Source: an uncultured Candidatus Saccharibacteria bacterium
GTDB taxonomy: Bacteria; Patescibacteriota; Doudnabacteria; UBA920
Length of the DNA stretch: 64,000 bases
Reading direction: 5' to 3'
Assembly (NCBI GenBank): GCA_964594755.1
Contig: CAZQMO010000001.1
Location: 169 to 64,168, forward strand
Below, piece by piece: positions 10,816 to 60,156 of this stretch. Below the pieces are notes generated by a model, which worked only from the letters and a program-made list of their open reading frames with translations, had not been told where the DNA came from and ran no database searches. The position numbers and the translations under genes were made by a program. Every line of letters begins with the position of its first letter. Within the stretch, counting starts at the first letter, position 1.

Positions 10816-11349
10816 TCAGCCGTTAATAATTTTTTTAAGAACCGCGGCAATGGCTCGGACTTTTTGTAAACCATCAGCGCTATTTTTGAGTTGAATATTA
10901 AAATGGTCAGCCAAAGTATTGAGAGTCGGCATTTTTTTGATACCGATGTGTAACGCATAAATATAACCTAAAGACCAAATATCCACTAAGTGCCGATCAA
11001 ATTTAAACGGAGTGAGAGTTTTTTTGAACGCTGCTCGCAAAAATAGATAATTTTGCACTGCGTTACTGGCCAGCAACGGTTCGTAACCGAATGTGTTAAC
11101 AAAGTCTTTGATTACATCGTTAATCTTTTGACTACGGCGCAGGGTGTCAAAACTGATTCCTAGTTGCTCGGAGTGTTGATGTAGAGTTCCATCAAGGAAA
11201 CTAACTTTAACGTAGGAATTAAAAAAGTTTTTTTCTAACAAACTGTCTTTGTCTAATAACACTGCAGAGAGTTGAATAATATGGTCACGATCAGCGTCAT
11301 TGCCAGTTGTTTCAAGGTGGAGAACTAATAAGTCTTTAATAAGCTTCAT
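10816..11349 (-). CDS. DEDD exonuclease-like paralog with His replacing the first catalytic Asp (possibly inactive)
   Basis: LVLHLETTGND aligns to the Exo I motif D-x-E with H in place of D. It is paralogous to the adjacent gene. Confidence 0.5.
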   Translation of the reverse strand: MKLIKDLLVLHLETTGNDADRDHIIQLSAVLLDKDSLLEKNFFNSYVKVSFLDGTLHQHSEQLGISFDTLRRSQKINDVIKDFVNTFGYEPLLASNAVQNYLFLRAAFKKTLTPFKFDRHLVDIWSLGYIYALHIGIKKMPTLNTLADHFNIQLKNSADGLQKVRAIAAVLKKIING

Positions 11350-19935: not shown

Positions 19936-19965
19936 AATCAAAACCGCCTTAGGGCGGTTTTTGAT
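19936..19965 (+). terminator. rho-independent terminator
   Basis: aaaaccgccttagggcggtttttg. Confidence 0.7.
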
Positions 19966-20119
19966 ATTACGACTTCCCTACTGGCTCGTAGGGGAGAGGT
20001 AGGGATCTTATCTAAAAACTTTTATGAATGTTAATCAATTTGTAGTTTAAGCACAGAGCAGGTCTACATCAAGAGAAGTACAAAACTTTTTAAATTAGTC
20101 GAACGATATGTCGTAGAAA

Positions 20120-20151
20120 CTTATTTTACGACTCAAGAGTCGTAAAATAAG
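20120..20151. repeat. 32-nt palindrome cttattttacgactc-aa-gagtcgtaaaataag
   Basis: Exact 15-bp arms within a 520-bp ORF-free region. Confidence 0.5.
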
Positions 20152-20160
20152 ATAAACTTG

Positions 20161-20183
20161 ATGCGACATAATATATGTCGCAT
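20161..20183. repeat. 23-nt palindrome atgcgacat-aatat-atgtcgcat
   Basis: Exact 9-bp arms adjacent to the previous palindrome. Confidence 0.5.
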
Positions 20184-20391
20184 AAGATACATTGTGCGAC
20201 GCGGTATCACTCTCCAGAGCATATCTCCCCTGTGGCTATTATGCCCTAGCCTGTCTGACTGTATTTAATATTTGAAATTTTCTTTTTGTATTCTCTGTGT
20301 TTGATTGTATATTCTTTCTTAAATACCACTCCCTTAATCATTGTATATACTTTTGACTAGAACGGTCGTCACCAATTAAAAGTAAGTGAAA

Positions 20392-49880: not shown

Positions 49881-50094
49881 TGGTACCGGCGGTTGGAATT
49901 TAACCACCGACCTAAGGCTTGTTTACCCACTCACCAATACTCAAAGCTGGTAGCGGAGGGTGGGATCGAACCACCGACCTAAGGCTTATGAGTCCTTCGC
50001 TCTAACCAACTGAGCTACTCCGCCATAACATAATTAGATTAAGTATTGGTGGGTGGGTAAAGTCCTTCGCTCTAACCAACTGAGCTACGCCGGC
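49881..50094 (-). tRNA. interrupted (split) tRNA gene paralogous to tRNA-Met(CAT): 5' half and 3' half separated by a ~137-nt insert in the anticodon loop that contains a complete tRNA gene
   Basis: The 5' part GCCGGCGTAGCTCAGTTGGTTAGAGCGAAGGACT and the 3' part AAGCCTTAGGTCGGTGGTTAAATTCCAACCGCCGGTACCA have complementary acceptor strands (GCCGGCG/CGCCGGT). Both match the inner tRNA from D-arm through variable loop. The insert is bracketed by an 18-bp inverted repeat (50043-50060 vs 49923-49940, one mismatch). Confidence 0.6.
49948..50024 (-). tRNA. tRNA with CAT anticodon (elongator Met or lysidine-Ile2), nested inside the split tRNA
   Basis: GGCGGAGTAGCTCAGTTGGTTAGAGCGAAGGACTCATAAGCCTTAGGTCGGTGGTTCGATCCCACCCTCCGCTACCA. 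Fully paired acceptor, so not an initiator. Confidence 0.85.
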
Positions 50095-50242
50095 ACGTTT
50101 GAGTTTTTCTCCCAGATTGCTTGGGCCGACACTGAGCTCGTCGAAGTGGAGGTTAAGCGATTTGGGATAAGGGACAACATCCTGCAGGCTGCAGTGACTT
50201 CGAGAATTCGGAGGCACGGAAGCCGGAGGGATGATTGGCCCG

Positions 50243-58262: not shown

Positions 58263-58535
58263 TTAATCTATGAAGTCCTTGTATAAATCTGTTATTCTTT
58301 TATAAAACCAGAGTGTTGTAGCTGTTAAAGCTACGATCAACCCGCCAATCAACCAGAGTCTGTTGTTATATTTGTCTGCTAACCATCGGCCTAAAAAGCC
58401 AAATGTTAACAATGGTAGGAGAACTATAAAGGCAAACTGTAGAGCTATTGATAGCGATTTAGCAAAGGTAATTTGCTTTTGGTTTGCTTTAGATTGCTCC
58501 CCTGCTGACTGAGATTTGATTTCTAGTTTTTCCAT
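58263..58535 (-). CDS. AtpZ/AtpI-like small membrane protein at head of atp operon
   Basis: 90 aa with 2 TM helices and a conserved operon position. Confidence 0.6.
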   Translation of the reverse strand: MEKLEIKSQSAGEQSKANQKQITFAKSLSIALQFAFIVLLPLLTFGFLGRWLADKYNNRLWLIGGLIVALTATTLWFYKRITDLYKDFID

Positions 58536-58559
58536 TTATAATTGGTCGCGGATGCAGTA

Positions 58560-58625
58560 GACTGTCCCGCTTTTCGTTCGCTCTGGCAAAGCCAGGAGCT
58601 CATTCACCAAAGGAAGATGTCATCC
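58560..58625. repeat. family-R intergenic repeat (copy 4) cgttcgctctggcaaagccaggagctcattcac
   Basis: Near-identical 35-nt core to the 58805-58860 copy. Hairpin ctggc-aaa-gccag. Confidence 0.55.
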
Positions 58626-58705
58626 TTACGGATGTCTTTATAACGCAAAAATTCTAACAAAAAAAGCCTAATTTGGCAAGGCAGACGTTTTTTGGCAGGG
58701 TTGAC

Positions 58706-58757
58706 AATTTGTTGTGGAGCCGGCTGCCGGACTTGAACCGGCCACCTACGGTTTACG
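58706..58757 (-). pseudogene. 3' fragment (~50 nt, anticodon stem to CCA) of tRNA-Thr(CGT), duplicate of the full gene 190 bp upstream
   Basis: ACGGTATCGTAAACCGTAGGTGGCCGGTTCAAGTCCGGCAGCCGGCTCCA is identical to the 3' part of the 58897-58972 tRNA. The 5' sequence is unrelated. Confidence 0.6.
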
Positions 58758-58804
58758 ATACCGTTGTCGCTATATCATGGTCGCTGAGCGTCCGCCAACT
58801 GGCG

Positions 58805-58860
58805 GACTGCCCAGCTCCTCGTTCGCACTGGCAAAGCCAGGTGCTCACTCACTAAAGTAG
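58805..58860. repeat. family-R intergenic repeat (copy 5)
   Basis: gctcctcgttcgcactggcaaagccaggtgctcactcac. Shares its flanks with the 23.4-kb and 34.9-kb copies and its core with copy 4. Confidence 0.55.
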
Positions 58861-58896
58861 AAAGTGCAGCGGTAATGGTTTATAGTAATTATCAAA

Positions 58897-58972
58897 TGGA
58901 GCCGGCTGCCGGACTTGAACCGGCCACCTACGGTTTACGATACCGTTGCTCTACCAGATGAGCTAAGCCGGC
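58897..58972 (-). tRNA. tRNA-Thr (CGT), CCA encoded
   Basis: GCCGGCTTAGCTCATCTGGTAGAGCAACGGTATCGTAAACCGTAGGTGGCCGGTTCAAGTCCGGCAGCCGGCTCCA. Confidence 0.9.
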
Positions 58973-59010
58973 TAGTTACCAATTTGGTGGTAAAAAAGAA
59001 TTCTTGATTA

Positions 59011-59190
59011 TGGAGCGGAGTACGAGAATCTTCACCCTGTCACCTCTGGAGCGAGATACCGGAATCGAACCGGCGCTAGTTGCTTGGGAAGCAACCGTAC
59101 TACCATTATACGAATCTCGCTCAAAGGTGACAGGGCGGGCTCGCGTCTCATGCTTGGGAAGCACGCATACTACCACTGTACTAACTCCGC
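59011..59190 (-). tRNA. interrupted (split) tRNA-Gly(CCC)-like gene: intact acceptor/D/anticodon arms, T-loop interrupted by an insert carrying a complete tRNA-Gly(CCC)
   Basis: 5' part GCGGAGTTAGTACAGTGGTAGTATGCGTGCTTCCCAAGCATGAGACGCGAG. Then a 10-bp inverted repeat CCCTGTCACC/GGTGACAGGG (59126-59135 vs 59035-59044) flanking the inner tRNA. Then ..AAGATTCTCGTACTCCGCTCCA, which completes the T-stem (GCGAG/CTCGT) and acceptor (GCGGAGT/ACTCCGC). Confidence 0.55.
59047..59120 (-). tRNA. tRNA-Gly (CCC), nested inside the split tRNA-Gly
   Basis: GCGAGATTCGTATAATGGTAGTACGGTTGCTTCCCAAGCAACTAGCGCCGGTTCGATTCCGGTATCTCGCTCCA. Confidence 0.85.
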
Positions 59191-59241
59191 CTAACTTAAC
59201 TATTCTAGCAAAAGCCCTGCTCAGAAGAACAGGGCTGAAGT

Positions 59242-60156
59242 TTACAATAGTTTCAAACTAGATATCTTATTGAATTCATTCTCAAGCCAAGTACTAAAGT
59301 CGCTAGGTTCTAAAAAGATTTGTTGAATGTTATAACTTTTATCTGCGTCGTTTCCAGAGTTTTCCGTGATGGCATTAATGCGTAAAACGTGGATTCCATA
59401 TCTACTGGCAACAATTTTATTATCATTGATAGCTAAATCTTTGACCGCTTCTTGGAATTCAGGTAAAAGCTCGCTATACGGAACGAAACCACTATCTCCA
59501 GCAAACGCGTTACTAGCTAAATCATCGTTATTCGATTGCGCTACTGAATCAAATTCAGCACCGCTATCTAATTGTGCTAGTAAATCGCGGGCTTGTTCAT
59601 AGGCTTCAGGGTTTAATGATTCTTGTCGATTATGCCATAAGGAAAGATTTTCTTGAATGACAGTTTCCTTTAGTACCTCGTTTTTAAAAGTGGTGATATC
59701 AATTCCATAAGTTTTCTTAAGCTCGGCTTCCAAATCCTGTTCGCTCTGATTCGGGAACTGTTTTACAATTCCACTAAACGCGCTATTGAGATCTTCTGCA
59801 GTTGGAGTGACGTTATACCGAGCTGCGAGGGCTTCGGTCTTTTTTGTATTGATAAGTTGTTCAAGAATAGTATCTGTAAGATTGTCGATTTTTGAATCAG
59901 TACCTTCGAGTAAATCCTGAGCCAACGAAACACGGTTATACAATTCGGTACCAGTGATTACTCTAGCGTTAACTAAAGCCACTGGTAATGGAATAGTTTG
60001 AAAAACCTTTTCTTTTGTAGCATTGACTTGGCCAGTATAGAGCCAAGTTAAGAGTGCAACAAGAATAATGGTTATTACTCCGACAATGATTAGTAAGGAT
60101 TTCTTTGGCATCTTGTTGGGAGCTTGCTCAGTCATAGTTGTTTCGGCTTTTGTCAT
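59242..60156 (-). CDS. membrane-anchored peptidyl-prolyl isomerase (SurA/PrsA-like N-domain + parvulin domain)
   Basis: N-terminal TM. The C-terminal DSGFVPYSELLPEFQEAVKDL...SRYGIHVLRI resembles the parvulin G.H.I core. Confidence 0.5.
   Translation of the reverse strand: MTKAETTMTEQAPNKMPKKSLLIIVGVITIILVALLTWLYTGQVNATKEKVFQTIPLPVALVNARVITGTELYNRVSLAQDLLEGTDSKIDNLTDTILEQLINTKKTEALAARYNVTPTAEDLNSAFSGIVKQFPNQSEQDLEAELKKTYGIDITTFKNEVLKETVIQENLSLWHNRQESLNPEAYEQARDLLAQLDSGAEFDSVAQSNNDDLASNAFAGDSGFVPYSELLPEFQEAVKDLAINDNKIVASRYGIHVLRINAITENSGNDADKSYNIQQIFLEPSDFSTWLENEFNKISSLKLL

Follow-up and report, generated by a model that had tools for sequence, protein, structure and literature searches.

Several described systems enter or interrupt tRNA genes. 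Genomic islands and prophages integrate in them by means of tyrosine integrases, as recorded in the Islander database (PMC4383910) and, for an attB within a T-loop, with Ms6 (PMC1762012). Among archaea, Nanoarchaeum and the Thermoproteales have split tRNA genes and non-canonical introns marked at the exon-intron junctions by a bulge-helix-bulge (BHB) motif, in which two 3-nt bulges enclose a helix of 4 bp (PMC4090602), and insertion of mobile elements has been proposed as the origin of these archaeal interrupted genes (PMC3293823). Group I introns, in turn, occur in tRNA genes of Patescibacteria (PMC13011429). Our literature searches turned up no account of one tRNA gene nested within another, of tRNA-in-tRNA or of an equivalent interrupted tRNA gene. 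Here we describe such a nest in a 64,000-nt stretch of Patescibacteria (candidate phyla radiation, CPR) DNA, hereafter the window (positions 169-64,168 of contig CAZQMO010000001.1, assembly GCA_964594755.1; coordinates are counted within the window). A complete tRNA-Gly(CCC) sits within the T-loop of a second tRNA-Gly(CCC), between the arms of a perfect 10-bp inverted repeat. The reading we favour, with modest confidence, is that a small non-autonomous cassette with repeat ends enters a cognate resident tRNA gene at one of its loops and takes that gene's place.

The Gly nest lies on the minus strand, as do the tRNA genes around it, and consists of the following parts:

59202-59210, minus strand: conserved extended -10 promoter element TGCTAGAAT; the 5' end of the outer tRNA follows about 12 nt downstream.
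59190-59140, minus strand: 5' part of the outer tRNA-Gly(CCC), allele B, positions 1-53; 51/51 positions shared with the intact gene in relative L073 and with the cargo gene in relative L003; Rfam partial match, 25.3 bits.
59139-59121, minus strand: left flank, with CCCG, the repeat arm CCCTGTCACC (59135-59126) and the leader TTTGA.
59120-59047, minus strand: inner cargo tRNA-Gly(CCC), allele C, complete with encoded CCA and presumably the functional copy; called by ARAGORN and by Rfam (62.3 bits).
59046-59027, minus strand: right flank, with the trailer GA, the repeat arm GGTGACAGGG (59044-59035), TGAA and GATT.
59026-59011, minus strand: 3' part of outer allele B, with CTCGT, ACTCCGC, the discriminator T and CCA; matches L073 and the L003 cargo gene at 16/16 positions.

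The outer 5' part provides the acceptor strand GCGGAGT, the D arm, the anticodon loop TTCCCAA and the 5' strand of the T-stem, GCGAG. The insertion point lies in the T-loop, around positions 53-57 of the outer tRNA, and the GATT that ends the right flank corresponds to its retained T-loop positions 57-60. The cassette itself measures 106 nt (16 nt of left flank, 74 nt of tRNA and 16 nt of right flank) and holds no open reading frame (ORF). At 93% complementarity its repeat can be lengthened to 14 nt, and no other copy of it is present in the window. All stems of the outer tRNA pair (acceptor 7/7, D 4/4, anticodon 5/5 and T 5/5, three G-U pairs included), and the 186-nt transcript is predicted to fold into a nested double cloverleaf at -84.9 kcal/mol (z = -6.7; none of 200 shuffles is as stable). 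On the intact locus, ARAGORN and Rfam call the inner gene only; at gathering thresholds, five tRNAs are the only Rfam matches in the whole window, and nothing beyond tRNAs was matched in the window or in five related loci. The anatomy, the stem pairing and both programs bear out an initial annotation, made from the letters alone, that had proposed a tRNA-Gly(CCC) nested in the T-loop of an interrupted one and flanked by a perfect 10-bp inverted repeat. The pairing of the outer halves, which it had singled out for checking with covariance models, holds in every stem, with the partial match of 25.3 bits coming from the 5' part alone.

We compared the locus with related loci and contigs, referred to by L-numbers (L001-L083), some of which are contigs from the Logan collection. 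Logan contig L001 (SRR35430749) is identical to the window over the whole Gly nest and ends in tRNA-Thr, so an assembly error at this locus is excluded. A second nest, built like the first, interrupts a tRNA-Met(CAT) gene of the same window at 50094-49881, and L070 (ERR2586217) reproduces its right half, including the right junction. The initial annotation had argued from this recurrence at a second tRNA locus that misassembly was improbable, and on both counts it was correct. An artefact of assembly or binning, in which two tRNA-Gly alleles of mixed strains were collapsed into one sequence, has next to no probability. Metagenome-assembled genomes (MAGs) do derive from metagenomes, and Logan contigs frequently break at these tRNA loci. 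Strain collapse cannot create a nest, however, because the junction sequences (the repeat arms) occur in no simple allele; moreover, L001 matches base for base, the Met junction is confirmed from another run, and a diverged copy of the same flanks is present in L003. The short-read Logan contigs that end inside these tRNA loci are L002, L063, L064, L068-L072 and L074. L002 runs to ...GAGACGCG in the outer T-stem and breaks off immediately ahead of the insertion point, which would fit filled and empty alleles occurring together in ERR2586217, or a mere coverage gap.

The window is ordinary core chromosome, with genes for LepA, DivIC, a parvulin-type PPIase, the F-type ATP synthase operon, a CCA-adding-type enzyme and RmuC. 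Its relatives have been deposited as Doudnabacteria or 'Saccharibacteria' MAGs, and the order PPIase, tRNA-Gly(CCC), tRNA-Thr(CGT) is kept across them. For the tRNA-Gly locus, 21 further loci could be read through the gene; one more contig was too short. The outer halves of the nest are identical (51/51 and 16/16) to an intact tRNA-Gly(CCC), allele B, at the syntenic position in L073, and the promoter-proximal flank upstream of the nest is likewise of L073 type. The inner gene, allele C, matches the tRNA-Gly genes of 18 relatives at just 48-57 of 74 positions. For these reasons, and judged by this comparison, the outer gene is the lineage's own resident tRNA-Gly orthologue, and the inner gene is a foreign allele and not a recent local duplicate. 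The initial annotation had taken the inner gene for a paralogue born of local duplication, which its distance from the relatives' genes does not support. The same annotation had counted a simple arrangement at orthologous loci as evidence against a nest. About 18 of the 21 loci do carry a simple tRNA-Gly gene, among them L062, the closest relative (75% identity in the adjacent PPIase protein), yet this is what insertion into a resident gene predicts, and it agrees with that model.

The Met nest shows the same plan in a different gene and a different loop:

49881-50094, minus strand: Met nest as a whole; intact orthologues in L027 and L075, right junction in L070.
50094-50061, minus strand: 5' part of the resident tRNA-Met(CAT).
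50059-50043, minus strand: repeat arm TACCCACCCACCAATAC.
50042-50025, minus strand: spacer.
50024-49948, minus strand: inner tRNA-Met(CAT).
49947-49941, minus strand: GCTTTGA.
49940-49924, minus strand: repeat arm GTATTGGTGAGTGGGTA.
49919-49881, minus strand: 3' part of the resident tRNA-Met(CAT).

The outer gene is an elongator-type tRNA-Met(CAT), interrupted in the anticodon loop after position 33, and the inverted repeat spans 17-20 bp. When the two cassettes are each anchored where they meet the retained loop bases, the Gly right end GGTGACAGGGTGAA and the Met right end GGTGAGTGGGTAAA are identical at 11 of 14 positions with zero offset, a match reached by 24 of 20000 shuffles (p about 0.001). 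Left ends follow the consensus TTyACCCnnTCACC and right ends GGTGAnnGGGTrAA, and in the window the motif GGTGANNGGGTRAA is found at cassette ends only. The agreement of the right ends and the confinement of the motif to cassette ends argue for a single family of cassettes able to enter different loops. Between the initiator tRNA-Met and the nested Met gene (50095-50242, minus strand) lies a non-coding segment (…GATGTTGTCCCTTATCCCAAATCGCTTAACCTCC…GGCCCAAGCAAT…) of about 130 nt, which is conserved and has no Rfam match; in L027 (19710-19840) the same segment follows the elongator tRNA-Met.

Two relatives bear this type of cassette, or what is left of it, in other resident alleles of tRNA-Gly. 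L003, whose PPIase is 69% identical to that of the window, carries a nest, predicted to fold as a nested cloverleaf, that shares with the window the 14-nt left arm CCCGCCCTGTCACC, the 10-nt right arm GGTGACAGGG and the left junction GCGAG|CCCGCCC, all identical; the right junction is one base off (TGAATATT vs TGAAGATT in the window). Its outer gene is a different one, allele A, matching the intact resident genes of L062 and L066 at 51/51 and 15/16 positions, with CCA changed to TCA. Its cargo is allele B, identical to L073 at 74/74 positions, that is, the allele that forms the outer gene in the window. In L007 an intact tRNA is followed by GAA-GTGGGCGGG-TGAA|GATT and then by the 3' remnant TCCAT-CGTCCGC-TCCA of an L008-type allele; the 5' half of this third resident allele has been lost. 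As far as such a remnant can be read, L007 shows a later stage of cassette replacement. With the same repeat ends in L003 and a remnant in L007, the lineage-specific process suggested by the initial annotation is borne out.

These relatives also bear on a simpler history, in which a single local duplication or template switch produced the nest, vertical inheritance followed, and gene conversion and homologous recombination produced the differences between L003 and the window. Allele B could indeed derive locally from allele A, since the two differ solely by two compensatory acceptor pairs, and L003 and the window have the same odd left junction. Bacteria of this kind are thought to take up DNA readily, and no mobility gene was found among the window ORFs scanned. 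Yet in every nest the two acceptor strands of the outer gene belong wholly to the local resident type, which would require a crossover within about 10 nt of the right junction, and the T-arm stem of the L007 remnant differs from CTCGT, leaving about 5 nt of homology there. Allele C is distant from every relative, related ends recur on the Met cassette, which occupies another gene and another loop, and most relatives, including the closest, have simple genes. A single origin is therefore unlikely in our estimation. Repeated cassette insertion fits the pattern better than plain homologous exchange of one ancestral nest, which fits poorly because crossovers would be needed within 5-10 nt of the junction.

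On the cassette reading, the sequence of events may be sketched as follows; the anatomy, the comparative pattern and the predicted folding are direct results, and the processing steps are inferred. A single-copy resident tRNA-Gly(CCC), allele B, would have been broken in its T-loop by a 106-nt cassette having neither promoter nor protein gene. Transcription would start from the resident extended -10 promoter and run through the outer 5' half into the cargo. The repeat arms would then pair and stack on the acceptor stem of the cargo, clamping the resident halves so that the cargo folds undisturbed. RNase P and 3' trimming, as general tRNA biology would have it, would free the cargo tRNA, which takes over, and the resident halves would be left as by-products that decay or are deleted with time. 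Members of this family would have entered allele A in L003, allele B in the window, a third allele in L007 and the anticodon loop of tRNA-Met in the window. An insertion would survive only if the cargo isoacceptor is the disrupted isoacceptor, as these genomes appear to have one copy of each tRNA gene. This may be why the cargo always matches its target: only self-complementing insertions would persist in apparently single-copy tRNA sets.

The dependence on the resident promoter is suggested by the position of a conserved element. TGnTA(A/G)AAT precedes the first tRNA-Gly by about 12-14 nt in the window, L003, L073, L062, L066, L004, L067, L068 and L083, with a looser form, TGGTAATAT, at the same place in L072, and nothing comparable stands ahead of the inner gene. 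We infer that the cargo depends on the resident promoter, because the element precedes the outer gene only. A promoter-like match, CTGTCA-17-TATAAT (10/12; 59133-59105, minus strand), runs from the left arm to the inner D-loop; it was treated as probably due to chance because transcription from it would start inside the inner tRNA. Thermodynamic models give the inner cloverleaf, in its native flanks, the same probability as the isolated tRNA (0.968 in the window, 0.776 in L003). Shuffled flanks lower this to 0.84 +/- 0.19 in the window and to 0.31 +/- 0.29 in L003, whose near-identical outer and inner genes can mispair. Since native and not shuffled flanks keep the inner cloverleaf as probable as it is alone, a plausible role for the inverted repeat is that of an RNA clamp insulating the cargo.

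Whether the outer tRNA is still a gene was addressed by an excision scan, in which the inner tRNA plus 0-44 nt on each side was deleted and all 2025 variants were rescanned with ARAGORN. At the Gly locus 14 of the 2025 deletions gave a call. The cleanest, removing 16 + 74 + 16 nt, yields a 74-nt tRNA-Gly with the T-loop CCCGATT instead of TTCGATT, and none of the excisions restores the normal loop TTCGATT. For the Met outer gene, the only call after excision is an odd, intron-bearing 'tRNA-Lys(ttt)', never CAT; no CAT occurs anywhere near its junctions. Compared with L027 and L075, it also carries two structure-damaging changes: A replaces C56, and the T-stem contains a G-A mismatch. The initial annotation had described the outer gene as resuming downstream of the insert: the T-stem and acceptor strands do pair again as stated, whereas a working gene with a restored T-loop does not result, the best cases being CCCGATT for Gly and a product without CAT for Met. 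In six relatives (L006, L009, L010, L013, L014 and L015) the only tRNA-Gly(CCC) at the locus carries TCCGATT as its T-loop, with C where position 55 is almost universally U (pseudouridine).

These results have to be set against a functional tRNA-in-tRNA, with the insert acting as an intron or as a split-tRNA linker and with both tRNA-Gly active, the outer one either ligated or working in two pieces that the repeat helix keeps joined. All four outer stems are intact, the outer Gly halves have no substitutions, and the GlyRS identity positions, which we take to be G1-C72, C2-G71, G3-C70, U73, C35 and C36, are preserved. The symmetric 16 + 74 + 16 nt arrangement, whose exact deletion gives a 74-nt tRNA-Gly by ARAGORN, speaks for such a molecule as well, as do the tolerance of TCCGATT among the relatives and the archaeal precedents, with introns at position 56/57 and split tRNAs with complementary flanks (PMC4090602). 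The archaeal genes resemble the nests in being interrupted in loops, position 56/57 included, and in having complementary sequences beside the break that zip the halves together; archaeal tRNA-Trp introns even contain a nested RNA gene of their own, a box C/D RNA. The nests differ in belonging to a bacterium, in having no BHB and no canonical loop after removal, in nesting a full tRNA of the same isoacceptor, and in the decay of their outer halves. A BHB intron was rejected on the fold: in both the minimum free energy and the centroid structure, an internal loop of 2 nt (5') and 6 nt (3') separates the T-stem from the repeat helix, and GCCC, read from the sequence, cannot pair with GAUU as a BHB central helix. 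No Pfam match to a splicing endonuclease (EndA) or ligase was found among the ORFs scanned in the 64-kb window.

A group I intron was rejected too, since no core was detected (Rfam gathering thresholds over the whole window; E<=5 over 58500-59300) and 74 of the 106 nt are tRNA. The known Patescibacteria introns come from the same phylum, also interrupt the anticodon loop and likewise cause standard annotation tools to miss the interrupted gene; unlike them, the nests have no catalytic core, consist mostly of tRNA, include one T-loop insertion and have exons that cannot be rejoined to a normal tRNA. The best spliced loop, CCCGAUU, lacks U54 and U55, and the Met outer gene is damaged and cannot regain CAT. 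Products of RNase P and exonucleases have ends unsuited to RtcB ligation. In L003 the outer gene has no CCA, and in L007 the entire 5' half is gone. The failure to restore the loops, the lack of a BHB and of a group I core, and the decay in L003, L007 and the Met outer gene together make the outer halves, by this comparison, relics and not a working tRNA. We regard a functional outer tRNA as very improbable, and keep a small probability for it because the clade tolerates T-loop variation and the outer Gly halves of the window are undamaged.

Integrase-borne islands provide the next comparison. Like them, the cassettes target tRNA genes at anticodon-loop and T-loop sites, preserve tRNA function and have displaced fragments at their ends. 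They differ in being 106-137 nt long, in having no integrase and in carrying a whole tRNA gene instead of a 3' fragment. Both old halves stay in place, nested and not in tandem, and the ends are inverted repeats without a common overlap. The nest might nevertheless be the leftover of an integrase-mediated island of which nearly everything has been deleted, with the regenerated gene and the displaced fragments remaining. The insertion sites are exactly the anticodon loop and the T-loop, tRNA-splitting islands leave a regenerated target plus a displaced fragment (PMC4383910), and T-loop attB sites are documented (PMC1762012). The adjoining tRNA-Thr has a classic displaced 3' fragment, and L075 has a tRNA-Asp fragment reaching from the T-loop to the 3' end. 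Integrase islands, though, restore their target through a partial 3' copy and leave one fragment, while here a whole gene stands between displaced 5' and 3' parts. The crossover does fall in a loop, yet there is no integrase gene, no partial 3' copy and no shared core at the junctions (CCCG vs TGAAGATT), the insert is only 106 nt, and its flanks are mutually inverted repeats, unlike the att sites of a deleted island. With no common core and both halves displaced, an att-site origin was rejected as the main explanation, and we hold an island remnant to be distinctly unlikely.

Miniature inverted-repeat transposable elements (MITEs) are alike in being short and non-coding, with terminal inverted repeats and a motif common to two copies in one genome. 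Conserved terminal inverted repeats are present in the nests (Gly 10-14 bp, Met 17-20 bp), whereas a target-site duplication is not visible; in further contrast, two copies lie within 64 kb, the cargo is an essential tRNA gene matching its target, the targets are loops of tRNA genes, and no cognate transposase is known. The missing target-site duplication and the missing common junction core speak against a textbook transposon as well as a textbook integrase event. We rate the tRNA-Gly and tRNA-Met nests as a gene-replacing variant of tRNA-targeting insertion elements.

Several observations weigh against the cassette reading. No recombinase, transposase, integrase or homing endonuclease was found by Pfam among the approximately 67 ORFs of the window. 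Mobilisation would therefore have to be in trans, by a loop-targeting recombinase or transposase or by homing-type gene conversion. No free or autonomous copy with the same ends occurs in the window or in 84 compared loci, and neither the Gly nor the Met junctions show a direct repeat that could be a target-site duplication. The junctions are not clean, with TTC replaced by CCCG on the left of the Gly cassette and CATAA reduced to CAA at the Met locus, which weakens the case for a simple cut-and-paste insertion. The left junction shared by L003 and the window may reflect recombination that copied one ancestral junction instead of two independent insertions. The outer Gly halves of the window show no decay at all, which fits a recent event and equally selection on them. 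Transcription, processing and the clamp role are predictions. The known set amounts to two Gly loci with a full nest, a third with a remnant, and the Met nest, and scans of JGI metagenomes and IMG/VR with junction motifs brought no further family members. In the metagenomes, GCTCCAN{1,4}GTGN{2,5}GGGTGAAKATT gave 31 matches. No recognisable tRNA stands beside any of them, and almost all fall in unrelated sequence that mostly looks coding; the match in L058 lies at a truncated contig end and could not be judged. Viral contigs gave 0 matches to the same junction motif, 0 to the allele C core and 0 to the permuted hairpin form of the Met repeat, while the corresponding form of the Gly repeat hit 6 unrelated hairpins with no tRNA near. 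A blastn search of the nest against phage records returned ordinary tRNA-Gly similarity only.

The surroundings of the nest contain further partial copies and repeats, of which the nearest is the following:

58715-58766, minus strand: copy of the 3' part of tRNA-Thr(CGT), 52 nt, 100% identical to the gene at 58972-58897; not part of the cassette.

This fragment lies 130 nt downstream of the gene and reaches from the anticodon arm to CCA. The initial annotation had noticed it and was right about its existence; its placement at 58706-58757 and its length of 50 nt are corrected here to 58766-58715 and 52 nt. It had also been taken as a sign of a rearrangement hotspot. Decayed copies stand at the same position in L066 (about 1250-1300) and L068 (about 11235-11290), so the arrangement is an old feature common to these relatives and not a recent rearrangement. 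Yet the fragment in the window is 100% identical to its gene, and that gene is of a type found in distant relatives (L013-L015), which suggests gene conversion or re-invasion.

The window holds two minus-strand copies of a conserved motif, CTTTAGTGAGTGAGCACCTGGCTTTGCCAGTGCGAACGAGGAGC...GCGACCA, about 75 nt long: one between tRNA-Thr and its fragment (about 58785-58862), the other in the leader of the ATP synthase operon (about 58545-58619). It is also found near tRNA fragments in L027 (19866-19945), L066 and L068. The motif has no Rfam match and could be a structured RNA of a new kind or a small repeat element. Partial copies generally surround tRNA genes in this clade: L027 has two tandem 117-nt units before tRNA-Asp (19946-20256), each starting with the first 19 nt of the gene, and L075 (19500-19910) has a tRNA-Asp 5' fragment upstream and, about 190 nt downstream, another that covers the gene from its T-loop through its 3' end. 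The core of the Gly repeat, GCCCTGT/ACAGGG (59126-59135 and 59035-59044), resembles the conserved terminator stem of the PPIase gene just upstream (59214-59235), which reads GCCCTGTTC...GAGCAGGGC in the window and GAACAGGG in most relatives. The resemblance may be due to chance or may hint at the origin of the repeat.

Tentatively, and as a possibility we would put at somewhat under even, the nests may represent an undescribed class of selfish or replacement element in Patescibacteria, of about 110-140 nt, in which one tRNA gene stands between clamp-forming terminal inverted repeats and enters the single-stranded loops of tRNA genes. If so, such a class would survive only in cases where the cargo makes up for the essential gene broken by the insertion, using the promoter of the host gene, which would be a new survival strategy: an insertion element that carries the rescue copy of the gene it disrupts. 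An essential single-copy tRNA gene could in this way be swapped without a gap, with the new copy arriving first and the old one decaying later, and tRNA alleles would be replaced serially between lineages. In practical terms, tRNA finders report the inner gene only and short-read assemblies break at the nests, and vertical inheritance of tRNA alleles cannot be assumed in these genomes. Bacterial tRNA genes split at loops with complementary flanks would also be a living model for the origin of archaeal split and intron-bearing tRNA genes, and a bacterial counterpart to the debate on whether such genes arose late, through mobile DNA entering loops.

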